NCBI GenBank assembly: GCA_964403585.1
Contig: CAYOFQ010000002.1
Coordinates: 5,667-69,666 of the forward strand
Length of the DNA: 64,000 bases
Source of the DNA: an uncultured Gammaproteobacteria bacterium
GTDB lineage: Bacteria > Patescibacteriota > Microgenomatia > JALYQM01
Direction: 5' to 3'
This document shows positions 2,157 through 63,841 of the stretch, one piece after another. Within the stretch, counting starts at the first letter, position 1. Every line of letters begins with the position of its first letter. The position numbers and the translations under genes are program-made. The notes under the pieces are model-generated. The model searched no databases and was not told the DNA's origin. It saw nothing but the letters and a program-made list of their open reading frames with translations.

Positions 2157-3326
2157 CTAAACATCTAGTTCCCCTCTTAACAACTTAGGCAGCAAGATGT
2201 CTTTCAATGAAATTAATTCATTATTTTCAACTTCTAACAGTTGAATCTTATGTTCTATACCTCCTGCAATTATTTCAAACTTTGAGATTAACTCTTCTGG
2301 AGGTAATATAACCTTTATATTTTCTAATTCACTTTTAGTAACAGCAGCAAAGATAGAACCAGATCCAAAACTATCTTCTTTTTTAAATACATTTCTTAGT
2401 TGGTAAAACAGAAAACTCTGGCTACCATTTTTATTTCGAACAGATGCTAGGCCTCGACCTAAGGACAACTCTCTATCAGCAATGTTCAGTCTTCCAACAG
2501 GGGCACGCACACTCAATAAAATATCTCCTTTTGCAGCTTTTCTCGGATTATTTGTACAGAAAATTTTATGAGTAGGATAACGCCGTCCAAAATAAGTAAC
2601 TCCCTGATGAAAAGGAAGACCCTTACCTTCTATGTTATAGTCTTCAGATGGTGGAGATTGACCCATTATAATATCTGCTACTTCAGCAAGAGTAGTTAAC
2701 CTCCACGTAGACTCAGACAAGACCTTATTACCTTGAATCATAAACCATTCTTTATAAACTAATTGGGCAACAAGTTCCAGCTTTTCTACAATTTTATTAT
2801 TTAGTACGATTTTTTCATCTAGTCTTGAAATTATCGAAGATATTTTAGACTGTATTCTCAAATTTTCAGGATACTTAATCAATATTTGCCTCAACTCAGC
2901 TTGCCTTATTCCTTCTGCAGCAGTTCCGCTCAATCTCTTAAGTAATTCATGTCTCCCCTCAGCTCCCTGAAGGTAATAGTATAAGTACTTAGGATCCAAT
3001 TTAGTTTTATCAGTCCTTAGTCCAAATAGCCTTTGGCTTAAAACAAGATCTTTTTTTTCAGCTAAATAATATATCTCACCTAAAGGCGCTTCTGATGTTA
3101 ACAAAATATCCCCTGCTTCAAGCTTTTCAGGCATCCACTTCTCATATAAATCCGAACTAACATACCTTATATCATCATGATTGACTATTCTACCTGTCTT
3201 AATATTTTTAGCAGATATCGCTGGAATGCCTTTACTCGACCAATCACCTCCTAATTTTTTAGGAGTTAAACCTCTATGATCAATTATCAATTCCATTAGA
3301 TTATCAAGTCTATCTTGTTTCCACAT
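2157..3326 (-). CDS. hsdS: Type I restriction-modification specificity subunit (HsdS), two target-recognition domains
   Basis: 389 aa with the typical HsdS central and C-terminal conserved helical repeats (…IISRLDEKIVLNNKIVEKLE… and …ILPPEELISKFE…LLPKLLRGELDV). It sits between the NYN gene and hsdR. Confidence 0.8.
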   Translation of the reverse strand: MWKQDRLDNLMELIIDHRGLTPKKLGGDWSSKGIPAISAKNIKTGRIVNHDDIRYVSSDLYEKWMPEKLEAGDILLTSEAPLGEIYYLAEKKDLVLSQRLFGLRTDKTKLDPKYLYYYLQGAEGRHELLKRLSGTAAEGIRQAELRQILIKYPENLRIQSKISSIISRLDEKIVLNNKIVEKLELVAQLVYKEWFMIQGNKVLSESTWRLTTLAEVADIIMGQSPPSEDYNIEGKGLPFHQGVTYFGRRYPTHKIFCTNNPRKAAKGDILLSVRAPVGRLNIADRELSLGRGLASVRNKNGSQSFLFYQLRNVFKKEDSFGSGSIFAAVTKSELENIKVILPPEELISKFEIIAGGIEHKIQLLEVENNELISLKDILLPKLLRGELDV

Positions 3327-3401
3327 ATACTAAACCCTTATTAAATTTGACTTATATCCACATTTTGCATATAATTAACATATAACGATGACTGGATAAG
3401 C

Positions 3402-3914
3402 CTAAGGTTTCGACCGACCGCTGATGCCAGTCGTTTTTTTGACATATTTTAAGCTCATTTTGAGCTTATCCAACGTTACTATATATTGAGCATACTTTCT
3501 CAATAAACTGGAATAATGCCTATTAGGCGTAATTACCTTCAAAAGCTTATTCTTACCAACTAAATGCTCAACTAAACAGTGAAAATCTCCATCATTAGAT
3601 ACAATTATCGCCTTTTCATAGTTTTCAAGCTCAATCATAGTATGTAAAACAAGCTCAGCATCAACATTCCCCTTCACAACTCCAGTTTTCAAAGTTAAGG
3701 TAGGCTTCAAAATGACTATATACCCCATCTCTTGTAAATGTGTATAAAGCTTTTCATTATCAGCTTTAAATCCGATAAAAACAAATGCTTTTTCGATCTT
3801 ATATTTATTTTTTAGATACTGACGAAACTTTCGCCAATCCAATTCCCAACCTTCAGATCGAACTCCTAAATTGAGATTTTGGCTATCTATAAATGCATAA
3901 TTCTCTTTACTCAT
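3402..3914 (-). CDS. NYN-domain (LabA/PIN-like) predicted ribonuclease embedded in the Type I R-M operon
   Basis: N-terminal YAFIDSQNLNLG and downstream AIIVSNDGDFHCLVEHL match the NYN/LabA acidic-residue pattern. The start ATGA overlaps the hsdM stop at 3911-3914, implying translational coupling. The C-terminal roughly 15 aa read through a hairpin region (3413-3473), so the true stop may be earlier. Confidence 0.6.
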   Translation of the reverse strand: MSKENYAFIDSQNLNLGVRSEGWELDWRKFRQYLKNKYKIEKAFVFIGFKADNEKLYTHLQEMGYIVILKPTLTLKTGVVKGNVDAELVLHTMIELENYEKAIIVSNDGDFHCLVEHLVGKNKLLKVITPNRHYSSLLRKYAQYIVTLDKLKMSLKYVKKTTGISGRSKP

Positions 3915-5704
3915 AACTCAAATCCTAAAGTTTTCAAATTCTTTCGTATCTCTTCTTCTAGTTGTCTCGATTTAGCAAAGTCAGCAGATAAACTCTTCGT
4001 CAACTCCGACATTTTTTCTTCATATGAAATACCGTCATCTTCTTCCTCCGCAATCTCAACATATCTCCCTGGAGTCAACACATAACCATTTTCAGCAATC
4101 TCAGAAAGAGTTACTGATTTACAGAACCCAGCTACGTTCTCATAAGTACCCACTTCACCTCTCCAAGCTCTCACAGTATCAGCAATCTTCTTAATTTGCT
4201 CATCATTAAATATCACTTGCTTCCTCGAAATTTGCTCGAATAGATCCTTGGCATCAATAAACAACGTTTCTCCAGCTCTATTTCGAAACCTTCCAGAAAC
4301 TTTATTCTTAGTCATAAACCACAAAGAAACAGGGAGTGAAACATTATAAAATAGTTTAGGAGGGCAAGCGATAATAATATCAATAAGGTCATCATCGATC
4401 ATCTTCTTACGGATTTCCCCTTCTTTACCACCTACAGCTAATGCCCCGTTAGCCATAACAAAACCAGCCATACCATTGGGAGTTAAATGATGCAAAAAAT
4501 GTTGAATCCACATAAAGTTAGCATTACCGGATGGAGGCGTTCCATATTGAATTCTCGGATCTTTTTCATCTAGTCGATCAGGGTTCCACTCAGCATTAAA
4601 AGGAGGGTTACAAATTTCGAGATCTACCTTTAAGTCGGAAAATTTGTCATCATAATAAGTATTTCCAAGTTCAATCTTTCCATAAATGCCTCTAATCGCT
4701 AAGTTCATTTTACATAACTTAAGAGTAGTTTGATTACTTTCTTGACCATAAATCGCAATCTTTGTAGGGTCTTTATGATGTTCTCGTAAAAATTTACTCG
4801 ACTGAACAAACATACCACCCGATCCACACGCAAAATCCGCAACTCTACTATTTTCAAAAGGTTCAAGCACTTCGACCAAAACCTTAACTATTGAGCGAGC
4901 AGTAAAAAATTCACCTCCACGCTTACCTTCTTCTGAAGCAAACTGACCTAAGAAATATTCGTAAACCCTACCCAATAAATCTTTTTCTTTTTCAATGTCG
5001 TGATCAAAGTTAATTCTAGAAAATATATTTACCAATTCTCCGAGGATGTGACTGTCAAGGCCCACACGAACGTAACTTTTGGGAAGTACCCCAGTAAGCT
5101 GTTCAGGATTATCTTTTTCTATAGCATCCATAGCTTCATCAATGTATTTCGCGATATCACTTGAAGTAGCCTTTGAACGCAAGTATTCCCATCGAGCAAT
5201 TTCTGGTATAAAGAAAATTCCTTTACTTTTATACAAGTCTTTTTCCTCTAGCATTTTCTCTCTTATTTGAGGATCCGGAACATACTCAGGTCTACTAGAA
5301 TCAGCCATAAATTCGACTAATTCATCCCGCCTTTGATAATAAGTGTCGGTAATGTATTTAAGGAATATAAGGCCCAAAACAATATGCTTATAATCGGAGG
5401 CATCAATTGAGCCACGCAGCTTATCTGCAGCGGACCAAAGATCATTCTCAAAATTTATATCTTTGTCCTTATTGATCTCTTGAGTAAGTCTTTTTGCCAT
5501 TTTGGCTGTTTCTAACTGAGCAACACTCACTCTAGATTGAAGTTCACTTGGCAAAGTATCCACTCGAATAAGGTATTTCTTACCTACCTCTTTGATTAGC
5601 ACCTCTCCAGCCTGTATTTTACCTTGTAACTGTTTTTGTATAGCTTGTCGCGACACACCAAGTATCCGTGCAAGGTCATTAATGGTGATATATTTTTCTT
5701 CCAT
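3911..5704 (-). CDS. hsdM: Type I R-M N6-adenine DNA methyltransferase (HsdM) with N-terminal helix-turn-helix domain
   Basis: 597 aa; catalytic NPPF motif (ICNPPFNAEWNPD) and an AdoMet-binding region (DFACGSGGMFV). The N-terminal roughly 70 aa look like a DNA-binding HTH (ITINDLARILGVSRQAIQKQL). Confidence 0.9.
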   Translation of the reverse strand: MEEKYITINDLARILGVSRQAIQKQLQGKIQAGEVLIKEVGKKYLIRVDTLPSELQSRVSVAQLETAKMAKRLTQEINKDKDINFENDLWSAADKLRGSIDASDYKHIVLGLIFLKYITDTYYQRRDELVEFMADSSRPEYVPDPQIREKMLEEKDLYKSKGIFFIPEIARWEYLRSKATSSDIAKYIDEAMDAIEKDNPEQLTGVLPKSYVRVGLDSHILGELVNIFSRINFDHDIEKEKDLLGRVYEYFLGQFASEEGKRGGEFFTARSIVKVLVEVLEPFENSRVADFACGSGGMFVQSSKFLREHHKDPTKIAIYGQESNQTTLKLCKMNLAIRGIYGKIELGNTYYDDKFSDLKVDLEICNPPFNAEWNPDRLDEKDPRIQYGTPPSGNANFMWIQHFLHHLTPNGMAGFVMANGALAVGGKEGEIRKKMIDDDLIDIIIACPPKLFYNVSLPVSLWFMTKNKVSGRFRNRAGETLFIDAKDLFEQISRKQVIFNDEQIKKIADTVRAWRGEVGTYENVAGFCKSVTLSEIAENGYVLTPGRYVEIAEEEDDGISYEEKMSELTKSLSADFAKSRQLEEEIRKNLKTLGFEL

Positions 5705-9057: not shown

Positions 9058-10149
9058 TTACGGAAACAAGGTTTCAAACGAAGGACTATGCTCGAGGATT
9101 TCTCGCAGAAAAATATTCTTGGCAAAACGGTCAACTATTCCGGCAGCCGTATCCGTCAGTTCATCAGGCAATCGTCGCATCGTTATGCGTTGGTACATCG
9201 GATGAATCAGCGCGAAACCGTATTCAACAGTTCTCACCGCCAAATTACTAAAACCCATTTCCCGGCATTTCGAACGCAACTGTGCTTTATGTTCACGTAC
9301 AAGCCACTTTGGATCCTCTGTCGGATGTATCGATTGCAGCGCGTTATAGTAGTTTGGTATAGCCAACCGACCATCCAATTCCGCCCCGTTAATATCATCA
9401 TCAATCTGAGCCAACATCGTTGTGTAATGCAACCCCACCAGCGCCCGGCGAGTCCGTGTCACATCGCTACCTGCATCGAAGAAAACTGAATATTTAGCCA
9501 CCATCTCTTCAAAATTTCGCGGCATCTGAGCAAAGTTAAAACCAACTTCTTCTAATACCTGCGGACTCAGTAAAGACAAACAAAACGCCTCATACATAGC
9601 CACATCACAATGGACATGTTGCAGCTGTTGCTCCGGTGTCAGTTCACCTTGGTAGGTTGACAGAAACAAACTATCCCGGGAAAAATGACCAAAAGCAACA
9701 TCAGCTTCTCCACACGGCACTGCCGCAAATTTTTCAAAATACCGTTTGTGCAAACGTTGAGACATCTCTACTAATGCATCTCGATGATCTGTAGCACCGA
9801 CAGCTTTACGCTCAGCCGGTCGGCCAACATCAATATAGTCATTCAAGGCCGTCAGAGCCACCAAATACGCATCCAAGCCGCGCACCCTCTCGGCGATAGT
9901 ACCCTGCAAATAATCGGGGAATAAACATTCCACTGCCGAAACAATCGTCGCCGTCGTTACGGGCAAAGTTAACCCAGGTTCTTTTCGCTTCTCAGCGGCC
10001 ACAACCCGTCCAACTTCAATAAAAGAACTCACACCTTCAGAGAAACTTGCCATATCGCGAATTATACCATTACTAAGCAAAAAAGCATAAATATGATACA
10101 ATCCGTTCTTAATATATGAACGAATTAGTTCGGGAAATTGGATATGCAC
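9058..10149 (-). CDS. hypothetical all-alpha protein, divergently paired with the cytochrome P450
   Basis: 363-aa ORF whose 5' end overlaps the P450 start, so the real start may be internal (e.g. the Met at 10053). Asp-rich stretches (FFDAGSD, IDDDING) are present, but their spacing does not match terpene-synthase DDxxD/NSE motifs. Confidence 0.45.
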   Translation of the reverse strand: MHIQFPELIRSYIKNGLYHIYAFLLSNGIIRDMASFSEGVSSFIEVGRVVAAEKRKEPGLTLPVTTATIVSAVECLFPDYLQGTIAERVRGLDAYLVALTALNDYIDVGRPAERKAVGATDHRDALVEMSQRLHKRYFEKFAAVPCGEADVAFGHFSRDSLFLSTYQGELTPEQQLQHVHCDVAMYEAFCLSLLSPQVLEEVGFNFAQMPRNFEEMVAKYSVFFDAGSDVTRTRRALVGLHYTTMLAQIDDDINGAELDGRLAIPNYYNALQSIHPTEDPKWLVREHKAQLRSKCREMGFSNLAVRTVEYGFALIHPMYQRITMRRLPDELTDTAAGIVDRFAKNIFLREILEHSPSFETLFP

Positions 10150-11567
10150 TCCACAGCAGGATAGCGGTGGAAACCCGCCGCGCCCTGGCGCCTAATCAAA
10201 CTCCGGGGCCTCGGAAACTTAATCCGCTACTCGGATGTTTACCGGAAGTCAGCACAGGACTTCTTGAATATATAGATACCGTCGCGCATCAGTTTCCTGA
10301 AATAGCGTTCTATCATGCCGGCGCTGCTATCTGTCAGGTTACCGATCCTGGGTTGGTGCGGCAAGTGTTGGCAGTGCAGCACGAAAAAACCCAGGCCATA
10401 GTTTTCCCGCGCACGGCCATGCGTTCCACCTTAGGCGAAGGAGTATTATTTAGCCAGGGCACCAAATGGCGCAACTCCCGCGAAGCAATGCAACCACAAT
10501 TTCATCACGGGAAACTGGAAAATTTCGCCGATATTGTCCACTCGGTATTGGATGAAACAGTCGACCAACTCAAATCATACCAAGAAACCGGCGCTACCTT
10601 TGACCTTAACAACGCCATGTCCGAAATGACTTTAAAAATCGTTCTGCGATCACTCTTTTGTCAGGACCTACCGCTGCAGGATTACCGTTCCATCATCGAC
10701 TTCACTATTAGATACAACGAGCTTTTTGTAGATACCCTCACTAAATCTCCTCTCTCACTTGTCAATCTGTTACTGGACAACAAATGGGACAAAAACGTCC
10801 GCAAGCTTCACGATATCGTCGAACAGGCAGATATCATTTTCGACCGGCTTATCGATCACCACCTCGAATATCCGCCCGGAACCTTTGACGACCTCTTATC
10901 ACTATTTATGAATATTCAATTTGAAGGACAACCAAACACACGAGAACAAGTCAAAAACGAAATCCGCACCTTCATACTCGCCGGGCACGACACCTCTGCG
11001 CGAGGTTTAACCTGGCTCTGGTACAACCTTTCTCAAAAACCGGAATGTATCGCCAAACTAACAGGTGAATTACAAGCCACCGGTAAAAACGCGCGCGAAT
11101 TAGGTCCGCATGATCTCAGAGAACTTCCGTACCACCGTGCCACCATTGAAGAAAGCCTGCGACTACACCCGCCTTCTTGGGTAAATTTACGCATGGCCAA
11201 AGAAAACCTGGCCCTAAAAAGTTCGAGCGGTAAGGATTATTTCGTCCCGCGGGGTACATACATTATTGTCAGTCCGTATGGCACCCACCGCAGCCCTGCG
11301 TATTGGGAAAATGCCGAACAATTCAATCCGGAAAGATTTCTTCTGCCGAATAGAAAAACAATCCACCCCGGCGCCTTCTTTCCGTTTGGCGGCGGTCCTC
11401 GTCATTGCATTGGCCAGGGCTTTGCTATGACGGAAATGCAGTTAGCAGTAGCACGACTTAATTCCGAATTTGCTATTCAAATAATTACCGGAGAAGTTGA
11501 ACCAATGGCCTCACTTGTGCTTCGAGCTAAAAACCCCATTATGGCTAAAGTAACACAAAAAGAATAA
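10116..11567 (+). CDS. cytochrome P450 monooxygenase
   Basis: Heme-binding signature FPFGGGPRHCIGQGFA, ExxR (EESLRLHPP) and I-helix AGHDTSA. Confidence 0.85.
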   Translation: MNELVREIGYALHSRIAVETRRALAPNQTPGPRKLNPLLGCLPEVSTGLLEYIDTVAHQFPEIAFYHAGAAICQVTDPGLVRQVLAVQHEKTQAIVFPRTAMRSTLGEGVLFSQGTKWRNSREAMQPQFHHGKLENFADIVHSVLDETVDQLKSYQETGATFDLNNAMSEMTLKIVLRSLFCQDLPLQDYRSIIDFTIRYNELFVDTLTKSPLSLVNLLLDNKWDKNVRKLHDIVEQADIIFDRLIDHHLEYPPGTFDDLLSLFMNIQFEGQPNTREQVKNEIRTFILAGHDTSARGLTWLWYNLSQKPECIAKLTGELQATGKNARELGPHDLRELPYHRATIEESLRLHPPSWVNLRMAKENLALKSSSGKDYFVPRGTYIIVSPYGTHRSPAYWENAEQFNPERFLLPNRKTIHPGAFFPFGGGPRHCIGQGFAMTEMQLAVARLNSEFAIQIITGEVEPMASLVLRAKNPIMAKVTQKE

Positions 11568-18301: not shown

Positions 18302-18404
18302 AATCTTAATTACATTCATAAGTTCAATTTGAGCTTAGAGTATAACTAAGATATGTTTATTATATCACAAAATAGGGAAAAAGTAAATTACTATAGGTTA
18401 TTTG

Positions 18405-18681
18405 CTCCCCGACTAGGATTCGAACCTAGAACCTTCTCGTTACATGAACCCCACAAGTTTCCTAGTGGCATGGACTATCTCATCACCATACTTAAAAAGC
18501 ACAGGTGTCAGGCGTATAGTCTCTGAACCTTCAATACGCAAGAAGCGTAAAGCTTGGCTGCGGATTACCATAATCTTTCGATCGTAGGCTTCCCGACAGT
18601 TAACCCAATTTTCACTTCAGGATTTCTCCAGAAGGCTGCATCAATCTACAGCGAGCCGCTCTACCGTTGAGCTATCAGGGA
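18405..18681 (-). tRNA. tRNA-Asn(GUU) interrupted by a group I intron (5' exon 18681..18648, 3' exon 18442..18405)
   Basis: The exons rebuild a 72-nt cloverleaf: acceptor UCCCUGA/UCGGGGA, D-arm GCUC-AACGGUA-GAGC, anticodon loop CUGU|UAA, T-arm CUAGG-UUCGAAU-CCUAG, discriminator G73; close to Bacillus-type tRNA-Asn. The intron sits between anticodon positions 35 and 36, after a U. Confidence 0.75.
18443..18647 (-). ncRNA. Group I self-splicing intron (IC3-like, 205 nt) within tRNA-Asn
   Basis: P1 pairs the 5' exon GCUGU with an internal guide GCAGC and ends on a U•G wobble at the splice site. The Q element AAUCCGCAGC is an exact match; the R-like GGUUCAGAGACUAUA and S-like GAGAUAGUCC pair in a P7-like helix (GACUAU/AUAGUC); there is a P-like UGUCGGGAAG; the last intron nucleotide is G. 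I recall the Azoarcus/cyanobacterial tRNA introns carrying similar …GCCAAGCUU… and …GAAGGU.UAGAGACUA.ACG… stretches, but this is from memory and not aligned. Confidence 0.8.
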
Positions 18682-18684
18682 ATA

Positions 18685-19401
18685 TTAACTTTTACCGTGC
18701 TTTAAGCACGATGCATCCTGAATTCTATCACCAAAAACAGCAGAAATCCACCCCATAATTTGACGCTGTATATCTGAGCAACTGAACCTAATAGAAAACA
18801 CTCCATAAGAGTGTATATTTTTTCTAATTTTCTGTGAATCAATCTTATTTTTTACTATATAAGTTTTATGGAATTTAGCCTTAGAAATACCCGTTAGTTG
18901 AGACCAAAATTCCCTTGCAGCTTCTATATCTAAACCTTCATGAATCCAAAGTGCACCTCTAAATCTATCTTCAGGGACCTTCGCAAATTGCCGTAACCAG
19001 CCCATCATAAACTCGATTATCCGAGGATCAGAATTTGCGATACCTCCCTTCCCATCGGCTTTATCACCTTCACCCAAATAAATAGCGATACCTGCCAACA
19101 ACCTGTCCCTTTCAGAAATCGCACCTAGTTCATTTTTTGCATGTAAAAATATTTGCTGAGTTTTATTAATTCTGTAGGAACGTTTATTTTCAGCTGCAGC
19201 AAGAGAACCCTTTTTTTGACCGTTAATTTTTGTAGTAATAAGCCGGTTTCTCTGTTCATCAGTTAATACTATATCCCTACACCAACGACTTAATGTGTCT
19301 TTAGAAACTTTAACCTGTAATAAAATCTCATTATAAGAAAGACCTTTACTTCTTAATTTCTGAGCAATAATTCGTTCTTCCAATTTCCCTGAATAACCCA
19401 T
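18685..19401 (-). CDS. HTH-domain protein with a possible degenerate LAGLIDADG-like motif (candidate free-standing homing endonuclease; weak)
   Basis: N-terminal HTH (LSYNEILLQVKVSKDTLSRWCRD); central LLAGIAIYLGEGDK resembles a degenerate LAGLIDADG motif; located immediately 5' of the intron-containing tRNA. Confidence 0.4.
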   Translation of the reverse strand: MGYSGKLEERIIAQKLRSKGLSYNEILLQVKVSKDTLSRWCRDIVLTDEQRNRLITTKINGQKKGSLAAAENKRSYRINKTQQIFLHAKNELGAISERDRLLAGIAIYLGEGDKADGKGGIANSDPRIIEFMMGWLRQFAKVPEDRFRGALWIHEGLDIEAAREFWSQLTGISKAKFHKTYIVKNKIDSQKIRKNIHSYGVFSIRFSCSDIQRQIMGWISAVFGDRIQDASCLKHGKS

Positions 19402-20206: not shown

Positions 20207-20524
20207 TTAACTGTTCTTAATTTTTTCTTCAATGTGATCCATTGTTTGTAAAAAAGCTTTTTCGATATCAATGTTGTAGCGCTTTGAAAGCACCAACACA
20301 CACCACAAACAATCTGCCAGCTCATGGGCCAATCGCTCATCTATATTTTCAAGTTTACGCACACCCTCTTTCGCCATGATTACTTCCATTAATTCACCAA
20401 TATCCGCCACAAACCCTTCCATAATATTGAGGTTAGTCCACGGAGTCCCCGACCGTTTTAACTCCAACTCCGAATACTTCTCCCGAATCTCAATCGCCCG
20501 CGCAGCTAAATCTTTAATGTCCAT
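20207..20524 (-). CDS. MazG-like nucleotide pyrophosphohydrolase
   Basis: 105 aa; FVADIGELMEVIMAKEG…LAHELADCLWCVLVLSKRYNIDIEKAF matches the MazG/NTP-PPase EExxE…(E/D)xxD helical motifs. Confidence 0.7.
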   Translation of the reverse strand: MDIKDLAARAIEIREKYSELELKRSGTPWTNLNIMEGFVADIGELMEVIMAKEGVRKLENIDERLAHELADCLWCVLVLSKRYNIDIEKAFLQTMDHIEEKIKNS

Positions 20525-20622
20525 ATGCCTCCTATAAAAAATGAGAGCTATCTGCTAGATAACTCTCATTGTACTACGCTATAGAATGTTCAGTCTCCTG
20601 GAAATATTTTCCTGAGCTTAGG

Positions 20623-20714
20623 TTATTCAGCGACATTCTTTGCCATACCTTAGCGGCAAAGCATAGGTTTAAAGGCTGAGACAAAGTCGAAGCGTTAACC
20701 GTGTCGCTGAATAC
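20623..20714. ncRNA. Unclassified structured-RNA motif, copy A (strand undetermined)
   Basis: Closing stem ATTCAGCGACA / TGTCGCTGAAT, inner hairpin CTTTGCC-ATACCTTAGC-GGCAAAG, then CATAGGTTTAAAGGC…GTTAACC. It shares a core with 63719..63835, with compensatory changes between the copies. Confidence 0.4.
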
Positions 20715-20732
20715 CCAAGCGAAGGGAAGAAC

Positions 20733-21872
20733 TTAATCTATATAATCTTTCAATTTTTTAGATCGGCTCGGATGACGCAACTTCCGCAGCGCCTTCGCCT
20801 CAATCTGACGAATACGTTCTCGAGTCACACCAAATTCCTTTCCAACCTCTTCCAGCGTTCGGGATTTACCGTCAATCAACCCAAACCGCATCTCAATAAT
20901 CTTGCGCTCACGATCAGTTAACGTAGATAAGACTTCCCAAATATGTTCACGCAATAAACCATGTGCAGCTTCGTCTTCCGGCAACGGCTCGTTGGCTTGC
21001 ACGAAATCTCCCAGGAAGCTGTCCTCATCCTCTCCAACCGGTTTTTCCAGAGAAGCCGGCTCTTGAGACACCTTAATAATCTCACGGGCCTTCTCGGGCT
21101 CTATACCCATTACTTTGGCCACTTCCTCTGGCGTTGGCTCACGACCCAGGTCCTGCATCATCTTACGTGATGTACGAACAAACCGGTTGATCGTTTCCAC
21201 CATATGCACCGGAATACGAATAACACGAGCCTGGTCAGCAATCGCACGGGTAATCGCCTGACGAATCCACCACGTCGCATACGTAGAGAATTTGTATCCG
21301 CGTCGCCAGTCATATTTTTCAACCGCACGAGCCAAACCAATATTTCCCTCCTGAACCAAATCCATCAAACTCATACCACGACCAACATATTTTTTGGCAA
21401 TTGAAACTACCAAGCGTAAGTTAGCTTCAACCAGTCGGTCATATGCTCGCTTATCTCCCTTTTCCACTTTCTTCGCCAAATCAATTTCCTGTTCAAAAGA
21501 CAACAGCGGAATGCGTCCGATCTCACGCAGGTACATACGTACCGGATCGGTTACAAAACCCTCATCAACCGTTGAAAGCACTTCCAGTTCTTTCTCAAGT
21601 TCCGAAGTACTCTTAACCGTATCTCCAGCCACTTCACTGGAAGTCTCAAACACATCAATCGACTCGGTGAGTAACTTGAGATACAAATTATCTAAGTCTT
21701 CTATGAAATATTCAGGCTGAGTATAGATTTCGAGAATATCATCCTGAGTAACAAAACCTTGCTTTTTACCTTTTTCAAGTAACTTCTTAATCATTCCGTT
21801 AACCACTTTAGGGTTAAGCACGGGAACGTCTTTGGTAACCTCGGCAGCAGGTGCTGCAGCAGTACTAGACAT
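20733..21872 (-). CDS. rpoD: RNA polymerase primary sigma factor (sigma-70 / RpoD)
   Basis: Regions 2 to 4 are conserved ([54 protein letters not shown]; [29 protein letters not shown]). Start chosen at ATG 21872, which is preceded by AAGAAGGAG, rather than the TTG-initiated extension to 21938. Confidence 0.9.
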
Positions 21873-29285: not shown

Positions 29286-29676
29286 TACAGTAGTCTGGAT
29301 GCCTACGGTACCGGTTTACCCGCCCCGTTAAGCAATATCCTCCCGCCTGTAGCATTCCGATACTAAACAATTCCCTTCACTACCTACGAACAGTGGAATT
29401 CTGCGAATAAGTAATCTTGTTCCCGGGATTCCACTGCTCAGTAGGAAAAATAGTGAAAGGAGGATGTTCCTACAACGACCACGTACGTCGTGAGCAGTTT
29501 ACATAGCAGGCTGGTCAAGTCCTATCGACATGGGAATGTCCAATCCGACAAGGTAGAGTGTGGCAAGTATCCACATCTATCAGCGTTGGTGCGGAATATA
29601 CCATGAAAGCAGGAGGAGATCTTCTGTCCGCCCGTCGTATCTCATATCGGCCGATAGAACTGAAGGATGTGCAACC

Positions 29677-30939
29677 ATGCGTAACAAACGCAACAACCGT
29701 AACCCTTTGCGGAACCCGTGGTTCCGCCGGACGAGCATCGCGATTCTCGTCGCGTTGGCGCTCGCCAACACCTTTCAGTGGGTGACTCTGGCGTCAGCTG
29801 CCGGGCACTTTAACTTTGAGGTGATCCGCAGGGATGAGAAGGGCTGGGAAGTTCGCGTCACCAACCCCGGGTGCCCCGAGGGTTGGAACTACAAGACGAA
29901 GAACTTGAGCGGCTCGTGGGAAGACGGGGATAACGGGGAAACAGCGCGCGCCTGGTGCGAGCGTGAAGTTCCCGATCCCAAGGATCCGACCAAGACCATC
30001 AAGGAGAAGTGCTGGGAGAGTTCGAAGTGGGTGGATAACCCCAACACGAAATCGCCCACGCGCGACCCCAACGTGCCCACCCGGACGCCGCGCCCCACGG
30101 TCGACTGCCCGCTCTGCACCGAAACGCCGACGGAGGAGGAGAAGACCGCCACGCCGACCGAGGAGGAGAAGACCGCCACGCCGACCGAGGTGGAAAAAAC
30201 CACCACGGCCACACCTCCCGGCGGCGGCGACACGGCTACCCCCCAGCGTACGGCGACCAGCACTTCCACAAGCACAAGCAACACGGCCACGCCGACCCGC
30301 CGCCCGCCCGGTGGTGGTGACAACCCGACCGCAACGACCATCGTGACGACCTACCTAGACGCCCGCGTCCTCGCGGCTTGCCGCGCGGATACCGGCCTGG
30401 GGGCTGACGTCGACCTCTATGTGTCGCCCAACCTGGCGAAAGCCTATAACCTCGGCGACAGCGTCAGCATCTACGCCCAGTACAGCGGCGGCACCGAGAT
30501 CGTGGTCGTGACGAAAGTTGGCTCAACGGACGACGGCTCGATCCACTACCGCGGTACGCTGCAGAGCGCGCGCAACGAGGTTCACTTCCTCAGCGTGGAG
30601 TTCGACAAGGTGTACAGCGTCAATGTCATCCCGTTCTGCATCACCGCCAGCACCGCCACCGTCGGCACCAGCGCCACCAAGACCCGCACGCCGGTCATTC
30701 CCCGCCAGGAAGGCTCAATCACACCCAACGCCGGCTTCGCAGCCGACGTTGACATGGCAGCGCTCCTGGCCGAAAACCCCACGATCGGGATGGTCGCCGT
30801 GAACGTGTTCGATCCCGAACACGCCTACGACCTGGCCTACCTGGCCGGAGCATTGATCAGCGCGCTGCTGGCAATCCTCCTCACCTGGTACGACCGCCAG
30901 CTCGCCGCCGCCAAGCCCCGCCGCCGCGTGACCGCCTAG
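29677..30939 (+). CDS. secreted Pro/Thr-rich repeat protein with C-terminal membrane anchor (GC-rich gene)
   Basis: Start at MRNKRNNRNPL…, signal peptide AILVALALANTF…ASA; TPTEEEKTA repeats; C-terminal TM LAGALISALLAILLTWY plus a basic tail. The 5' part of the longer tracked ORF (from 29560) is rejected. Confidence 0.6.
   Translation: MRNKRNNRNPLRNPWFRRTSIAILVALALANTFQWVTLASAAGHFNFEVIRRDEKGWEVRVTNPGCPEGWNYKTKNLSGSWEDGDNGETARAWCEREVPDPKDPTKTIKEKCWESSKWVDNPNTKSPTRDPNVPTRTPRPTVDCPLCTETPTEEEKTATPTEEEKTATPTEVEKTTTATPPGGGDTATPQRTATSTSTSTSNTATPTRRPPGGGDNPTATTIVTTYLDARVLAACRADTGLGADVDLYVSPNLAKAYNLGDSVSIYAQYSGGTEIVVVTKVGSTDDGSIHYRGTLQSARNEVHFLSVEFDKVYSVNVIPFCITASTATVGTSATKTRTPVIPRQEGSITPNAGFAADVDMAALLAENPTIGMVAVNVFDPEHAYDLAYLAGALISALLAILLTWYDRQLAAAKPRRRVTA
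30124..30200 (+). repeat. In-frame 30-nt tandem repeat (about 2.5 copies) encoding TPTEEEKTA units
   Basis: ACGCCGACCGAGGAGGAGAAGACCGCC is repeated directly. Confidence 0.6.
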
Positions 30940-33103: not shown

Positions 33104-33121
33104 TTCCTTATTCTATTTGAG

Positions 33122-33208
33122 CGGAGAGGGAGGGATTCGAACCCTCGATACCCTTGCGAGTATATTGTCTTTCCAGGACAACGCACTAGTCCACTATGCG
33201 ACCTCTCC
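33122..33208 (-). tRNA. tRNA-Ser(GGA)
   Basis: Class II tRNA: GGAGAGG acceptor, anticodon stem-loop UUGUC-CUGGAAA-GACAA, long variable arm, T-loop GGUUCGAAUCC; CCA not encoded. Confidence 0.8.
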
Positions 33209-33342
33209 TTAAAATAACTGGGTTGTATCAATAACTATCTGCTTTGATACAAGCCAGGTATTTTAACTGTGGGGTCGTCCTGTAAGGGCGACCTCTCCAA
33301 ACATGCTCCTTATTCTAACACAGATTCAACTGAAAATCTCAC

Positions 33343-36651: not shown

Positions 36652-36654
36652 CAG

Positions 36655-36738
36655 CGGAGAGGGTGGGATTCGAACCCACGAGGCTCATCACCTAGACGTG
36701 TTCGAGACGTCCGCACTCGGCCACTATGCGACCTCTCC
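36655..36738 (-). tRNA. tRNA-Ser(CGA)
   Basis: GGAGAGGUCGCAUAGUGGCCGAGUGCG…GACGU-CUCGAAC-ACGUC…GGUUCGAAUCCCACC; long variable arm. Confidence 0.8.
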
Positions 36739-36837
36739 TTAATATATCTTGTTCATACCTACTGGAGCCTGATAGGCATGAACAAGATATATTATCGTGA
36801 GCGTCGTCCTGTAGGGACGACCTCTAGCCCATTCTAG

Positions 36838-40397: not shown

Positions 40398-40491
40398 TGG
40401 CGGAGAGGGAGGGATTCGAACCCTCGATACGGGTTTAGGCCCATATAATTTCTTAGCAGGAAATCGCTTTCGTCCACTCAGCCACCTCTCC
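40398..40491 (-). tRNA. tRNA-Ser(GCU), CCA encoded
   Basis: GGAGAGGUGGCUGAGUGG…AUUUC-CUGCUAA-GAAAU…long variable arm…GAGGGUUCGAAUCCCUCCCUCUCCGCCA. Confidence 0.8.
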
Positions 40492-40552
40492 AAAGGTAAC
40501 CTGGAAACTTGAGGAAGTATATCACAAAACAGGCAGAAAATTCTCCCCCATC

Positions 40553-50490: not shown

Positions 50491-51198
50491 TTGAACACCT
50501 CCCCTTTTGCTATAATCAAACCAATGCTACTCGACCTACTCTTCCCCAAGCAGTGCCTCTCCTGTAATAAATACGGTTCCTACATCTGTGATAACTGTGC
50601 GGCCAAAATAACCCGTCATAATCAAACCTGCATTGTCTGTTATCACTACTCACCATTCGGTAAAACCCACCCTGAATGCCAAAAACACACGCCACTTAAT
50701 GGCGCCATCCTGACAACCGAATATAAGGAACTGACACGCCATGCCCTCCACCAGATAAAATACAAACTAAACTACGATATCCTGAGAGAGCTCTTACAAA
50801 AAACACTCGACTCAAAAAAGATAGCGCAATGCCTAATTCAGGAAGAAATAGAGCTCTGCACCGAAGTACCTATGCATCCTTATAAACAGAATCAGCGGGG
50901 ATTCAATCAGGCATTGCTCATGGCAAAATGGCTCGCCGGACATTACTCCATTTCCTACCGGTCGCTGCTAATCAAGAAACACAACACCCTGCCACAAATG
51001 AAACTATCCCGTGAAGAACGGATCTTCAACATCAAAAATGCATTTTTAGTAAAAGATCCTTCCCTGATAAACGGCAGAAACATACTATTTGTCGATGATG
51101 TCACAACGACCGCCTCAACACTCGAAGAGTGTGCTTCCATCGCAAAAAAAGCAGGAGCAGGAAAAGTTTGGGCCATCGTCATAGCCGCTCGGCGATAA
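50491..51198 (+). CDS. comFC: ComF-family protein (phosphoribosyltransferase-like competence protein)
   Basis: N-terminal double-Cys zinc ribbon (CLSCNKYGSYICDNCAAKI…CIVCYHY) and PRTase motif ILFVDDVTTTASTLEE. Confidence 0.7.
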   Translation: MNTSPFAIIKPMLLDLLFPKQCLSCNKYGSYICDNCAAKITRHNQTCIVCYHYSPFGKTHPECQKHTPLNGAILTTEYKELTRHALHQIKYKLNYDILRELLQKTLDSKKIAQCLIQEEIELCTEVPMHPYKQNQRGFNQALLMAKWLAGHYSISYRSLLIKKHNTLPQMKLSREERIFNIKNAFLVKDPSLINGRNILFVDDVTTTASTLEECASIAKKAGAGKVWAIVIAARR

Positions 51199-54733: not shown

Positions 54734-55895
54734 ATAAATTCACTAGTCAACCTAAAATTCAAACAGATCACGCACCTCAACACCCAATCGCACAGCAAGC
54801 TTTATCAAATACCACACCGTTGTATTCACATATCCATTTTCAATTTTAGCCGGGACCGAAGTGAAAAGTATTATCTTCTCTCAATAATCATTTACAGATG
54901 TGGAAAAGTTACCGGTCTACAAGACAAACCATTTATGACAAAAAATCAGGGGTTGGAACCAGTACTTTATCCAGTCCTATTAAGGTTTTTGATGCTTTAA
55001 AAACATCAAAAGAAAATGATGTGGAGATGCCGATCTATGAAATCGGGTCTGGAATCTGTAATTAAAAACATCTACATAGCATAGTCGGTACTTATATCTC
55101 GTACCACAACGATCCTACCGACAGGAGAAGTGATACAAAGGTCAAAGTCTTAAAGGATTACAGCGACCACCCCGAATCCTCGCATACAATCTTTGTTTAC
55201 GCCCTACTCCGCTCGATTGTAAAATCAGAATAGAACGTCCATTGTTTAGCTAAAGAAAAGTTTAGCCAAATGCAGGATAGCTAACGCCTGCTACAGCGTT
55301 ACCCAAGCCGAAGTTTGGGAACTTTGCAGCGATTTTGTCAGCTATTGATGTAGAAGAATCTGCATCTATATTTTAGTCCCGTTTTTACGACTCTTGAGAC
55401 CATCGTCGGCTATGCAGTTTTTAAAGAGCACATCCCATCGAAACAACACATCCCCATGAGATTTTATGTTAAGACTAGTGCTTAACAAGACTGAATTATA
55501 ACACATTTTAAGCCATTTTTCCAGTAAAATAAACCTGCCAAACCGCTAATAGCAGAGCAAAGCTTTAAACGCAAGCAGAGCGAAGCCTTAATCGTATCAC
55601 TGGCAAGCTCGACAAGAAGGGTATAATTACCCTGTTGACATACATACACTAATGATATAACATATAAATATACTTACAGTATAACAGTCATCACTCGCTG
55701 TAAGTGTTCCTTAAAAATTCCTTTTCTGATTTCGTCGCAGACCCCGGGATCATATAAAAAGGGCACAATACATGTCCTGTCAGTATCTCATTATAGGTGC
55801 CGCTAAATTGGATAAGGAATTTATGAATAAACCCGTCTTTGAAACATAAGGCGGGTTTATTTTTATGCAAAGCCTTTCTCCCTTTACCCCTACAC

Positions 55896-56354: not shown

Positions 56355-56515
56355 CCACGCGAAGCTTACCATTTCATTTTATGAAGCCGAACTTCCGCCC
56401 TGGGGAACGTTTATGGCTAAAGAAAAGATCGTGGTGCGAAGGGCATTGAGAAAGAGCAACTGGAGCATGTGAGGCCATTAAAACGAAATGGTAAGCGAAG
56501 TGACAAAGAAGTTTA

Positions 56516-61363: not shown

Positions 61364-61786
61364 ATGAAGAAATGTTTAATTCTCATCCTCTTTTGTTTCT
61401 CATTTTTTGTTGCCCAGAATAGTATAGTTTTTGCCGCACCAACAGTCGAATGCAGCGCCACAATCAAGTGTCCTGCAGGTAAGTCGTGTGTTGGCTCATT
61501 TTGTGTTCAAGCTGCTCCCAGCCTACGCCCTGAATTCCAACAGGAAGGAGCCTTAACCTTTGCCGTCTCTCGATTCTTTACCTATTTATTGCCGGTTATC
61601 GGTATTCTCGGTTTCCTGCTTTTCCTCTGGTCGGGCTTCCAATTCCTGATGAGTAAAGGCGATCCTAAAGCCCTTGCCGCAGCTCAAGCGAGATTAACCT
61701 ATACCGCTATCGGATTGCTAATAATTTTCCTGGCATATAGTATTACAGCATACACAACCGGATTATTTGGATTGGTAACACCATGA
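61364..61786 (+). CDS. T4SS-pilin-like (TrbC/VirB2-like, CPR-type) small membrane protein, paralog 1
   Basis: Signal peptide, Cys-rich N-terminal segment, two TM helices and the family core WSGFQFLMSKGDPKALAAAQARLTYTAIGLLIIF. Confidence 0.65.
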   Translation: MKKCLILILFCFSFFVAQNSIVFAAPTVECSATIKCPAGKSCVGSFCVQAAPSLRPEFQQEGALTFAVSRFFTYLLPVIGILGFLLFLWSGFQFLMSKGDPKALAAAQARLTYTAIGLLIIFLAYSITAYTTGLFGLVTP

Positions 61787-62205
61787 AAAAAGTATTTAAG
61801 AAAAGCTTTATCATCTCAATATTTGTATGTATCGGACTCTTGGGTATCAAAAATATTCAAGCTGCCAGCTCCGTTCCGGTTGCTACCTGCCAACCGATCC
61901 CGGGACAGGGAGTCTCCATTCAGGATTGTGCGAACGCTAACTTCCCAAAGGGTGCGCCCACTACGATCGGTGGTTGGGTTTCTACCATCTTAGGCCAGGT
62001 ATATACCATAGCGCTTGTCGTCATGCTCGCCTATTTAATCTGGGGTTCATATCGTTTTATGATGGCCGCCGGAGACCCCAAAGCCATTGCCGCAGCCAGA
62101 GCCCATCTGACGTGGGCAATCGCTGGTATGATCATCGTGTTTGTGGCATATTGGATATATCGTGTCATCAACGAACTGGCATTCTATGTATTCCAGGACA
62201 TTTAA
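61783..62205 (+). CDS. T4SS-pilin-like protein, paralog 2
   Basis: WGSYRFMMAAGDPKAIAAARAHLTWAIAGMIIVF core; start overlaps the upstream stop. Confidence 0.65.
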   Translation: MKKVFKKSFIISIFVCIGLLGIKNIQAASSVPVATCQPIPGQGVSIQDCANANFPKGAPTTIGGWVSTILGQVYTIALVVMLAYLIWGSYRFMMAAGDPKAIAAARAHLTWAIAGMIIVFVAYWIYRVINELAFYVFQDI

Positions 62206-62222
62206 TGGTACTATAAAAACAT

Positions 62223-62849
62223 ATGTATATATATAAATTGTTCTTAGATGTAATCGCAGCCGTAGCACCCCCTGAACCGGGAAGCAATACCCCAAGCAAT
62301 GAAGCCGGAAGCATTGTCGGACGAATTTTCCCTCCATTTCCCGGATTTAGCGGATCAATCAGTTTAACCAGATATTTTCTTACCTTATTCAATACAGCCC
62401 TCTATGTCGGCCTCGTCGCTGCTCTTATATATATAGTCTACGGAGCAATCAAATGGATTACCTCGGGCGGAGATATCAAAGCCCTCGCCGCAGCTCGCAA
62501 TACCATTACCCACGCTATAATGGGTGTTATCCTTCTTTCACTCGGCTTAGTCATGAGTCAGGTTGTCGGAACATTTGTCTCTCCCACACTCGACGACACT
62601 AATTCAAAGGCAGTATATATCTGCGGCTATGGCAGCCGCAAAGAACAATGCGATTTAAGTGGCATTCCACCATCAGAATGTTATCAGTCTATTACCTGTC
62701 ACCAAGTCTACTCACGTATTTTAAATGAAAAGGCCGACAAACTACAAATGAGCTACCCAAGCCAATACTGCTTCAGTGCCCAGGAATGCGACAAGGGCTG
62801 TAAACAAAATGAATTAATTAACACATATAAATATTGCCAGCCAATCTAA
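62223..62849 (+). CDS. T4SS-pilin-like protein, paralog 3, with Cys-rich C-terminal extension
   Basis: GAIKWITSGGDIKALAAARNTITHAIMGVILL core plus about 90 aa C-terminal containing 10 Cys. Confidence 0.6.
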   Translation: MYIYKLFLDVIAAVAPPEPGSNTPSNEAGSIVGRIFPPFPGFSGSISLTRYFLTLFNTALYVGLVAALIYIVYGAIKWITSGGDIKALAAARNTITHAIMGVILLSLGLVMSQVVGTFVSPTLDDTNSKAVYICGYGSRKEQCDLSGIPPSECYQSITCHQVYSRILNEKADKLQMSYPSQYCFSAQECDKGCKQNELINTYKYCQPI

Positions 62850-62853
62850 GAAT

Positions 62854-63204
62854 ATGAATAGTAAAAAATTACTTATCTTTTTCATACTGCTCACGGGGTT
62901 AATACCTACCCGGCTGGCTGAAGCGGCCGGGCTGGGAACCTTAAGTCCACCGACTGGTACAACTCTAGATCTGAATGCCAACGTTATCCGTTTTGTTAAT
63001 TTTGCTATCGGCAGCGGTACGGTTGTTTTTCTGTACATGTTTGTCCGTGGAGCGATTGAATGGACTATTTCCGAGGGAGATAAAATGAGGCTCGAAACCG
63101 CACGAAACCGCATGACCCAAGCCGCTATCGGACTACTGCTTTTAGGTACCTGTTTCGCAATCGCATCAATTGTGAGATCCTTAACCTATTCACGGGGATT
63201 TTAA
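62854..63204 (+). CDS. T4SS-pilin-like protein, paralog 4
   Basis: RGAIEWTISEGDKMRLETARNRMTQAAIGLLLL core. Confidence 0.6.
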   Translation: MNSKKLLIFFILLTGLIPTRLAEAAGLGTLSPPTGTTLDLNANVIRFVNFAIGSGTVVFLYMFVRGAIEWTISEGDKMRLETARNRMTQAAIGLLLLGTCFAIASIVRSLTYSRGF

Positions 63205-63262
63205 ACAATTTTGGAAAAAATATGGTATAATAAGTTGTCTTGAAGGGAGGTGAATTTAAAAC

Positions 63263-63646
63263 ATGTTCAAAAAAGCATATGCAAAATTAGTTGGTGTTTC
63301 ATCAGCAGCAACAGCGGTATTATCTTTGGCAACGGCTACATACGCTCAGGTAACCTTATCGTTCCCTACTACCAGCCAATACGGTTTCAACGATTTGCCA
63401 ACAGCTCTTAGCGGAGTCTTAAACCTCGTTTTCTTCTTTGCGTTAATCTTAGTTTTGATCTACCTCGTTTGGGGTGGTATCCAGTGGATCACATCCGGTG
63501 GAGACAAAGCAGGAACTGAAGCAGCTCGAGGTAAGATCACTGGCGCTATCGTCGGTATCATTATCGTTGCAGTAGCATTCGCAATCTTCCGATTGCTCAT
63601 GACATTCGTCGGTGCTACAAACTCTATCGTTATCACCAAACAATAA
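63263..63646 (+). CDS. T4SS-pilin-like protein, paralog 5
   Basis: Strong RBS GAAGGGAGGTG; WGGIQWITSGGDKAGTEAARGKITGAIVGIIIV core; followed by a terminator. Confidence 0.65.
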   Translation: MFKKAYAKLVGVSSAATAVLSLATATYAQVTLSFPTTSQYGFNDLPTALSGVLNLVFFFALILVLIYLVWGGIQWITSGGDKAGTEAARGKITGAIVGIIIVAVAFAIFRLLMTFVGATNSIVITKQ

Positions 63647-63670
63647 AACTCAAAAACAAAATAGAGTTAA

Positions 63671-63701
63671 AAATACCGGTCTTTATGACCGGTATTTTTT
63701 T
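63671..63701 (+). terminator. rho-independent terminator after the pilin-like gene array
   Basis: Stem ATACCGGTC / GACCGGTAT followed by a T7 run. Confidence 0.65.
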
Positions 63702-63718
63702 GCATAAAGTAATATTTT

Positions 63719-63835: not shown

Positions 63836-63841
63836 ATTAAT

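Follow-up and report, generated by a model that had tools for sequence, protein, structure and literature searches.

The bcr1 repeats of the Bacillus cereus group (Okstad 2004, Klevan 2007) are described, in the summary by Delihas (2011; PMC3184786), as elements of about 155 bp with mobile-element traits, the distribution of which is not conserved between close strains. According to the same summary, they are predicted to form a branched hairpin, composed of a closing stem and two stem-loops, which is kept by compensatory changes, some copies being less stable; sequence homology extends over the whole length, 5-bp direct repeats are present at each copy, and the repeats are transcribed (PMC3184786). 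The pneumococcal BOX, RUP and SPRITE elements are likewise co-transcribed structured repeats, and they were judged to be parasitic (Croucher 2011, PMC3049150). The present analysis concerns a structured element, here called family 1, which lies between genes in a 64,000-nucleotide stretch of a bacterial genome (the window; contig CAYOFQ010000002.1, positions 5,667 to 69,666). A preceding reading of the sequence alone had drawn attention to two copies, A and B. These are tentatively interpreted here as a low-copy, lineage-restricted structured interspersed repeat, neither riboswitch nor terminator.

The closest described analogue is bcr1. Like bcr1, family 1 is a small intergenic interspersed element found in one shallow lineage and patchy in close relatives, its closing stem with two stem-loops is kept by compensatory changes, and some copies are without structural stability. 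Unlike bcr1, with which it was compared by description only, it measures about 95–115 bp, its outer closing arms are unrelated, and a direct repeat is found at one copy only. A second likeness is to BOX, RUP and SPRITE together with ERIC, Correia and RPE-type repeats (PMC3049150, PMC3184786), which are species-restricted, structured intergenic elements of about 100 bp, often situated between stop codon and terminator; co-transcription with neighbours, slow new insertion, a parasitic character and side-effects on expression complete this list. In contrast, the copies of those repeats are near-identical, number tens to hundreds and have ends or modules that are conserved, whereas three intact copies (A, B and D) and one remnant (C) are known here, and in family 1 it is the interior that is conserved and the ends that vary.

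Fold, covariation and copies of the element

Folded singly, copies A and B each gave one and the same three-way junction, with a long stem closing it. Compared with dinucleotide shuffles, the folding z-scores were −6.4 (+ strand) and −4.7 (− strand) for copy A, and −10.7 and −10.1, respectively, for copy B. When 20623–20714 was aligned to 63732–63821, with the outermost arms left off, mean column identity over the 93 columns was 84%. Nine pairs were changed on both sides and none on one side, and 60 of the 62 cells were paired, compared with 32–44% when the partners were slid by one to three columns. Model-guided alignment of A, B and the intact copy D (see below) yielded 31 pairs, with 97.8% paired, 14 double-sided changes and no one-sided change. 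Not one of 500 shuffles reached the observed value on any measure, and in the slid controls only zero to three pairs showed a double-sided change. RNAalifold, applied to a separate MAFFT alignment, returned the same helices, the P2 extension included. The fold of family 1 is under constraint, since pairing is kept while 14 of 31 pairs are altered at both positions and no pair at a single one. Among the approximately 90 pairs of the three helices in A, B and D, no G-U pair was found. A complete lack of G-U pairs is unusual for RNA helices, judged from typical frequencies.

The core shared by the copies comprises about 66 nt. The closing stem, P1, spans 12–24 bp across the intact copies; in copy A it is a 15-nt inverted repeat, 93% complementary, which reaches about 20 bp imperfectly. 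A and B have its innermost CGAC/GTCG in common. Outside these four pairs, P1 shows chance-level identity, as do the outer closing arms when A, B and D are compared. P2 consists of 7 bp and a 2-bp extension past a U/C mismatch, the extension being A-U in A and C-G in B. P3 is composed of 4 bp, a TA bulge and 6 bp, and the junction strands are 0–2 nt long. Invariant unpaired bases were ATACCT in loop 2, the TA bulge in P3, AAGT in the otherwise variable loop 3, and GT at the junction of P3 and P1.

A covariance model, R1, was built from A and B only, a check proposed by the sequence-only reading, and was run with filters off on the window and on the loci of relatives. In the window, a third match was obtained at 55517–55607 (19 bits, E = 0.015), designated copy C. 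It shares 19 of 21 bases with copy B (GCAGAGCAAAGCTTTAAACGC), around GCAGAGCA.AGCTTTAAA.GC. On the locus of the closest SmpB relative (L031, 90% identity), the same model detected the intact copy D at 60.3 bits (E 5.5e-14). That a model made from A and B only detects an intact copy in a different genome is the strongest evidence against chance.

Copies C and D are orthologs, because the flanks of the spacer between smpB and the transfer-messenger RNA (tmRNA) gene align, with attataacacattttaag to the left and gctcgacaagaa to the right, the latter immediately next to the 3' arm. Compared with D, copy C has about 36 nt deleted, the 5' arm of the closing stem included, carries unpaired substitutions in both P2 and P3, and folds no better than shuffles (z +0.7 and +0.1). 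It keeps TGCC/GGCA in P2 and the G-C pair in P3, as A and B do; in D, these are changed to TTTC/GAAA and T-A, respectively. As C retains the forms found in A and B, the forms of D correspond to three double substitutions after the split of C and D. On these comparisons, pairing is selected in the intact copies. It is not simply a product of quasipalindrome template switching (PMC7202029), since that mechanism would have mended the local hairpins in C too.

Most of what the sequence-only reading had reported about the two loci was confirmed: both were present with the shared core as it quoted them, and the sequences given for P2 (CTTTGCC/GGCAAAG against CTCTGCC/GGCAGAG) and P3 (GGTT/AACC against GCTT/AAGC) were correct. 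Its claim that three stems carry compensatory changes became stronger with the fourth sequence, with 14 of 31 pairs covarying. Its count of two copies was borne out for A and B and was too low, at least three being present in the window. The second copy, placed by it at 63719–63835, was at the right locus, and the inverted repeat was measured slightly shorter, at 63720–63833. The closing stem, held to be entirely different yet paired, is so in its outer part; the innermost four pairs are shared.

Table 1. Positions of the family 1 copies, their parts and the adjoining terminators, in window coordinates unless stated otherwise. The + strand is that of the covariance model and not necessarily the functional strand.
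Feature	Position	Strand	Remarks
Copy A, whole element	20617–20720	+ (model strand)	first-noted segment 20623–20714
Copy A, closing inverted repeat	20621–20635 / 20702–20716		imperfect extension to 20617/20720
Copy A, P2	20638–20644 / 20655–20661		loop ATACCTTAGC
Copy A, P2 extension	20635–20636 / 20663–20664		
Copy A, P3	20666–20669 + 20672–20677 / 20691–20696 + 20697–20700		TA bulge 20670–20671
Copy A, loop 3 (L3)	20684–20687		AAGT
Copy B, whole element	63720–63833	+	
Copy B, closing stem	63725–63743 / 63810–63828		19 perfect bp inside a 24-nt inverted repeat, 92% complementary
Copy B, P2	63747–63753 / 63765–63771		
Copy B, P2 extension	63744–63745 / 63773–63774		
Copy B, P3	63776–63779 + 63782–63787 / 63798–63803 + 63804–63807		TA bulge 63780–63781
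Copy B, loop 3 (L3)	63791–63794		AAGT
Copy B, 6-bp direct repeat	63721–63726 and 63827–63832		ACGAGT
Copy C, degenerate remnant	55517–55607	+	between tmRNA 5' end (55455, − strand) and smpB
Copy D, intact	L031: 180–270 (Logan ERR8482628)		tmRNA–smpB spacer; R1 match
Intrinsic terminator near copy A	20540–20570	−	14-bp stem and T-run; separate from the element
Bidirectional terminator hairpin	63669–63699	both	serves both the last pilin-like gene (+) and the PMT-family gene convergent with it (−)

Gene setting and occupancy of the sites in relatives

The gene context was as first described. Copy A lies between the rpoD stop codon (20733) and a MazG-domain gene (20207–20524), both genes being on the − strand. 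Copy B sits 3' of the terminator of the last T4SS-pilin-like gene, ahead of a convergent gene identified by synteny with relatives as PMT-family, and occupies the space between terminator 63669–63699 and the stop codon of that − strand gene (63842–63844). On the − strand, A and B both fall between stop codon and terminator, those of rpoD and of the PMT-family gene, respectively. The copies are 8–35 kb apart in the window, among housekeeping genes, and A, B and C all have the same orientation. Copy D is located between the tmRNA promoter (extended −10 TGTGTTATAAT, − strand) and the smpB promoter (TTGACA...), both promoters having been read by eye. No transcript is obvious in this spacer, which is probably untranscribed.

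Two of these settings yielded separate observations. The gene smpB is divergently transcribed from the same spacer as tmRNA; the extended −10 element (window 55480–55500) lies about 45 nt upstream of the mature tmRNA 5' end and is kept in relatives L027 and L031, and the tmRNA gene (55019–55455, − strand) contains a long insertion in the tag-reading-frame/pseudoknot region relative to the Rfam model. Upstream of copy B, window positions 61364–63646 hold an array of five small genes, most of which match the T4SS-pilin family (PF18895). The array is syntenic in L027, L029 and L033 and is followed by the convergent PMT-family glycosyltransferase gene.

For comparison, loci of relatives were gathered via homologs of rpoD, SmpB and pilin. 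Identity of rpoD was about 70% for Daviesbacteria and Curtissbacteria and 80–92% for the other relatives; the organism belongs to the candidate phyla radiation (CPR)/Patescibacteria and is of Microgenomates type. Sites A and B were empty in all relatives examined (83–92% protein identity). At site A, a terminator and the ribosome-binding site of the mazG-like gene, with nothing else, were found in L021 and L022 (rpoD 92%), a 17-nt gap in L020 (91%), a terminator only in L032 (87%) and a 20-nt gap in L023 and L024 (83%). At site B, only a bidirectional terminator was present, both in L033 (pilin 88%), where it is orthologous to window 63669–63699, and in L027, L028 and L029 (SmpB 87%). The site of C and D holds the intact copy in L031 and the remnant in the window, and in L027 it holds a hairpin-closed element that is unrelated to them. 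No further family 1 copy besides D was detected with models R1 and R2 (filters off) in loci of relatives totalling about 150 kb; weak model matches at L032 229–311 and window 50824–50919 were both in coding sequence.

Since sites A and B are empty across the relatives, insertion in the lineage of the window is favoured, and it is far more parsimonious than many precise losses. The comparison showed that A and B were gained at new intergenic sites beside terminators after the split from relatives at about 88–92% protein identity, and that C is an older copy decaying in place while its ortholog D is intact. Presence/absence polymorphism and a decayed copy, as known for interspersed repeats, were thus both found.

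The same polymorphism, at three sites and with a decayed copy, could also be produced by a classical MITE (miniature inverted-repeat transposable element), with terminal inverted repeats, target-site duplications and a transposase encoded elsewhere in the genome. Intergenic placement beside terminators would fit such an element, and copy B in particular forms a 100-bp unit with 17-bp perfect inverted ends, symmetrically flanked by the 6-bp ACGAGT, which resembles a target-site duplication. However, nothing like this repeat was found at A or D, where the only candidates are 4 bp long and either off-boundary or themselves palindromic, and none of them is convincing. The arms of A, B and D are unrelated except for the inner CGAC/GTCG in A and B, and terminal arms that are unrelated imply no single transposase binding site. 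The interior is what is conserved, which is the reverse of the MITE pattern, and no transposase was present among the 25 scanned open reading frames (ORFs). A MITE is therefore considered improbable, in agreement with the earlier statement that the element is not one, at least in the classical sense, given the unrelated terminal arms.

The gene order at copy A invites a different explanation. On the − strand, the element is followed by 50 nt, by the terminator 20570–20540 and, close behind it, by the ribosome-binding site and ATG of the MazG-like pyrophosphohydrolase gene, an order that would suit a riboswitch or attenuator controlling this gene through the terminator. This was rejected because of where B and D are situated and because the site is empty in L021, which has the order rpoD–terminator–mazG without the element. 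Neither copy B, between convergent genes, nor copy D is followed, in whichever orientation it is read, by a gene that it could regulate, and C and D lie between divergent promoters, so that there is no consistent position in a 5' untranslated region (5'UTR). Furthermore, the terminator is 50 nt from P1 and is neither interlocked nor competing with it, junctions of 0–2 nt leave little space for a ligand pocket, and no Rfam match was found. Control of mazG by the element is accordingly hardly credible.

Searches for known classes and weighing of the explanations

With Rfam 15 at gathering thresholds, only tmRNA, a group I intron and five tRNAs were reported for the whole window. At E ≤ 10, within 20500–20800 and 63620–63920, nothing was found over the motif core, only chance matches or the neighbouring terminator. 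Pattern searches were equally negative. In the genomes of the GTDB species representatives (596 Gb), TGCCATACCTTN{2,5}GGCAN{8,11}TTTAAA gave seven matches, all of them chance occurrences in coding DNA; in the JGI metagenomes, GCCATACCTTN{14,22}TTTAAAN{15,45}CGTGTCG gave two, again by chance in coding DNA. Both patterns required TGCC/GGCA or GCCATACCTT, which are absent from D, and were too strict, so that D-like variants would have been missed. A P2-independent pattern, CATACCTN{12,20}AGNTTTAAAN{15,32}TTAANCGTGTC, fits A, B and D and was run on viral contigs. Three patterns gave six, one and zero matches on the IMG/VR viral contigs, none of them genuine, the single one (L026) being rescored at 10 bits. 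A BLAST search of copy B against phage and plasmid collections returned no match. In consensus scans, no promoter or terminator belonging to the element was identified, nor was a promoter or flank motif shared around A, B and D. The gene neighbourhoods of the copies (rpoD, mazG, a pilin gene, the PMT-family gene, tmRNA and smpB) are heterogeneous and show no consistent gene association.

Several specific candidates were tried and rejected. The element is not an intrinsic terminator, as no T-run follows P1 on either strand and the terminator scan calls only the neighbours 20570–20540 and 63669–63699. The junction strands (AC, U and none on the − strand) contain no CUGANGA/GAAA, with both strands read, and a hammerhead or other ribozyme core was rejected. 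Loop 2 on the − strand has UAUGG and CUAAG, as in the 11-nt GNRA tetraloop receptor, but without an intervening helix; the 5' half differs in B and D, and the likeness is a coincidence. Tiny ORFs of 7–9 codons after AAGGU-AUG on the − strand have a Shine-Dalgarno spacing of only 1 nt. Insertion into a pre-existing terminator loop was considered because the L027 terminator AAAAAAGCGAC...GTCGCTTTTTT shares GCGAC with copy A; it is unsupported, since copy B has a separate orthologous terminator and no T-run follows P1. The copies are also not the attL and attR of an island between C and B, as D occurs by itself in L031 and the gene order of relatives is the same in the absence of B. Finally, a retron non-coding RNA would have the long closing inverted repeat that is present here, but no reverse transcriptase is found among the neighbours.

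Structures of comparable outline are known on both the RNA and the DNA side. Purine riboswitches and hammerheads resemble family 1 in having a P1-closed three-way junction with two hairpins, in which the loops are most conserved and the sequence of P1 is variable. In contrast to them, family 1 has no Rfam match at E ≤ 10, junctions of 0–2 nt, no CUGANGA/GAAA, no consistent 5'UTR position and a far longer closing stem of 12–24 bp. On the DNA side, integron attC sites, repetitive extragenic palindromes (REPs) and the hairpins of IS200/IS605 (HUH/Y1 transposases) act as folded single strands in which the fold and not the stem sequence is conserved. Family 1 shares with these sites the conservation of fold over stem sequence, a putative replication-related orientation bias and an intergenic position downstream of genes. 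For attC, conserved outer core sites RYYYAAC/GTTRRRY and cassette arrays are characteristic. The outer arms of family 1 lack these sites, and its copies stand among housekeeping genes and form no cassette array; an assignment to attC was rejected. REPs are simple hairpins of 20–40 nt with a conserved GTAG. A REP with its associated tyrosine transposase (RAYT) was likewise rejected, the element being a three-way junction of 95–115 nt without GTAG at the stem foot and with no Y1 transposase in the scanned ORFs of the window, among which no integrase was found either.

With these classes set aside, the interpretation as an interspersed repeat can be given a tentative mechanism. The element would be propagated, or at least retained, through its single-stranded fold, by a recogniser reading the core loops and the presence of the closing duplex and not the terminal sequence; with such a recogniser, the closing arms could drift freely while remaining paired. 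The constraint may act at the level of DNA, as a single-stranded DNA (ssDNA) hairpin, or in a strand-symmetric way, in preference to a classical RNA gene. This lean, which is held loosely, rests on the presence of only Watson-Crick pairs, the untranscribed appearance of the D spacer and the uniform orientation on a GC-skewed replichore. GC skew was uniformly negative, from −0.07 to −0.28 in 4-kb windows over 1–64000, the + strand being C-rich; as it is strong and uniform, the whole window is placed on one replichore, and the shared orientation of A, B and C on it is suggestive (n = 3). A and B would have been carried into the − strand 3' untranslated regions (3'UTRs) of rpoD and the PMT-family gene, between stop codon and terminator, where a secondary effect of the long duplex on the processing or stability of the mRNA would be conceivable.

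A number of points weigh against this interpretation. No transposase, integrase or reverse-transcriptase domain was found in the Pfam scan of 25 window ORFs, and the features that define MITEs fail, the arms being unconserved and a flanking direct repeat being present at copy B only. With three intact copies and one remnant known, little statistical weight can be given to copy number per genome, to the orientation bias (n = 3) or to the lack of G-U pairs. The retention of pairing in D through three double substitutions looks like purifying selection in place, which suggests a benefit to the host, although gene conversion from another copy could mimic such maintenance. The decayed P2 and P3 of C speak for selection on pairing, at whichever level. 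Moreover, the invariant AGGU of L2 and ACUU of L3 on the − strand could form a 4-bp loop–loop contact including a G-U pair, and this contact, possible on the − strand only, would favour an RNA reading.

The main rival explanation takes the copies as a small RNA module used by the host, without a promoter of its own and carried within host transcripts (the − strand 3'UTRs of rpoD and the PMT-family gene). In such a module, the 19–24 bp perfect closing duplex would be a processing site of RNase III type, cleavage of which would free an RNA of about 70 nt with the three-way junction or strip the protective terminator from the mRNA; the loops would bind a protein or dock together, and the paralogs would evolve by birth and death. 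In this way, the lack of a promoter, the arbitrary sequence of the stem and the persistence of intact D at its site would be explained. The module is consistent with covariation in all three helices combined with invariant unpaired bases, with the identical orientation of A and B to host transcription, exactly between stop codon and terminator, and with the AGGU/ACUU pairing, restricted to the strand that is transcribed with rpoD and the PMT-family gene. A closing duplex with the length of a double-stranded RNA substrate and an arbitrary sequence recurs in three unrelated families (see below), and D was preserved at its site through double substitutions, the decay of C having taken place in a genome with two other intact copies. 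In contrast, D lies upstream of both the tmRNA promoter and the smpB promoter, so that no host transcript obviously covers it; the lack of G-U in about 90 pairs and the extremely narrow distribution do not favour a module of this kind; and the same genes of relatives work without A and B. Taken together, the RNA module is regarded as a serious contender, yet somewhat unlikely.

Covariation by itself does not separate the repeat from the functional RNA, because bcr1-type repeats also covary (PMC3184786). The sequence-only reading had taken the conserved structure as an argument for a functional RNA, against a MITE or a terminator; the conclusion that mobile or repeat elements are thereby set aside is not supported. 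The empty sites, the decaying copy C and the untranscribed-looking spacer of D run counter to this conclusion, which is further weakened by the lack of a shared promoter, terminator or gene association and of G-U pairs. In other parts, its interpretation was supported: the motif matches no riboswitch or other family in the Rfam scan, and it is not a terminator, as no U-tract follows the stem and separate terminators adjoin A and B.

The exclusive use of Watson-Crick pairs, by which both strands are equally palindromic, would also be expected of a double-stranded or cruciform DNA site for a host protein, serving nucleoid organisation, replication or recombination, or insulation between transcription units, in which case the hairpins would merely reflect palindromic binding sites. 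All copies having one orientation on the replichore, their intergenic positions between convergent, divergent and tandem genes, and the location of D in an untranscribed-looking spacer are in line with this. Palindromes bound by proteins, however, keep their sequence, whereas here 14 pairs change identity yet stay paired. A three-way junction with asymmetric conserved loops is atypical for a site in duplex DNA, and the copies are dispensable in relatives. Such a site is thus quite improbable.

Families with the same architecture, further features of the window and significance

In an inverted-repeat survey of the window and relatives, two further families were found in which a long, arbitrary closing stem surrounds a family-specific core. 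Family 2 is represented at window 56364–56496 by an 18-bp stem (GCTTACCATTTCATTTTA/TAAAACGAAATGGTAAGC) around a 97-nt core, which fills the gap between smpB and a convergent gene of 686 aa. L027 has two copies (~9590–9715 and ~10455–10590), of which one is an ortholog with a largely different yet paired stem and the other lies in the tmRNA–smpB spacer, and the copies share the core motif TTTTATGAAG..CTCCGCCCTGGG. Family 3 was found in L023 (rpoD 83%) at 96–202 and 18616–18720, with perfect stems of 18 and 16 bp, unrelated to each other in sequence, that enclose closely similar cores of some 72 nt (..AGCGACTTTTCGATTTTT...AAAATCGAAAT..GAGCGGAAAAAC..). Families 1 and 2 had no match in Rfam.

With three families built in this way, the enclosure of a family-specific core in a long closing duplex of arbitrary sequence seems to be a general design of the lineage. 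A bolder proposal would be that they form an undescribed class of mobile or self-perpetuating elements in Microgenomates-like CPR genomes, or that the core of family 1 is a new small ribozyme or protein-binding RNA; this is judged unlikely. In such a class, a structured core of about 65–100 nt would be enclosed in a nearly perfect closing hairpin of 10–24 bp of arbitrary sequence, the elements would take their own closing stem along when they move from one intergenic site to another, and they would be recognised by structure, either as folded ssDNA or as an RNA cut out at the base of the stem, and not through their terminal sequence.

Other features of the window were recorded in passing. A group I intron (Rfam 79.7 bits, 18451–18657) lies inside an apparent tRNA gene on the − strand (18390–18690), the 5' half of which is TCCCTGATAGCTCAACGGTAGAGCGGCTCGCT and the 3' half of which ends in GGTTCGAATCCTAGTCGGGGAGCA; ARAGORN makes no call for this split tRNA. 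An ORF of 238 aa (18685–19401, −), for which Pfam gave no match, reaches its end at the tRNA's 5' edge. A type I restriction-modification system occupies 2157–5704 on the − strand, with HsdS at 2157–3326, the HsdM methylase at 3911–5704 and a gene for an NYN-domain protein (predicted RNase) between them at 3402–3914. The tRNA-Ser genes (33121–33296, 36654–36825 and 40400–40502) have extended repeats in common in the flanks outside the tRNA itself: AGGTATTTTAACTGTGGGGTCGTCCTGTAAGGGCGACCTCT at 33256, for instance, has a 76% identical copy at 36785, and a 29-nt inverted repeat is located at 36733–36801 in the tRNA-Ser region. Three tandem 27-nt repeats (ACCGMMACGCCGACSGAGGAGGAGAAG) at 30118–30198, within the ORF 29560–30939, encode a repeated acidic peptide segment.

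Genomes of CPR/Patescibacteria are tiny and usually held to be repeat-poor, and their non-coding elements are little known. If the interpretation as an interspersed repeat is true, the find is a modest one, adding one more lineage-specific repeat family. For the analysis of such genomes, it follows that strong covariation in a few paralogs is insufficient for calling a riboswitch or a small RNA gene. Family 1 shows that even a tiny CPR genome has structured intergenic elements which are gained, compensatorily maintained and lost on the timescale of species divergence. The combination of a free closing stem with a conserved interior, recurring in two other families, points to recognition by shape; if true, this would extend the known means of spread of small elements, by structure-specific transposition of ssDNA or by excision of RNA from transcripts.

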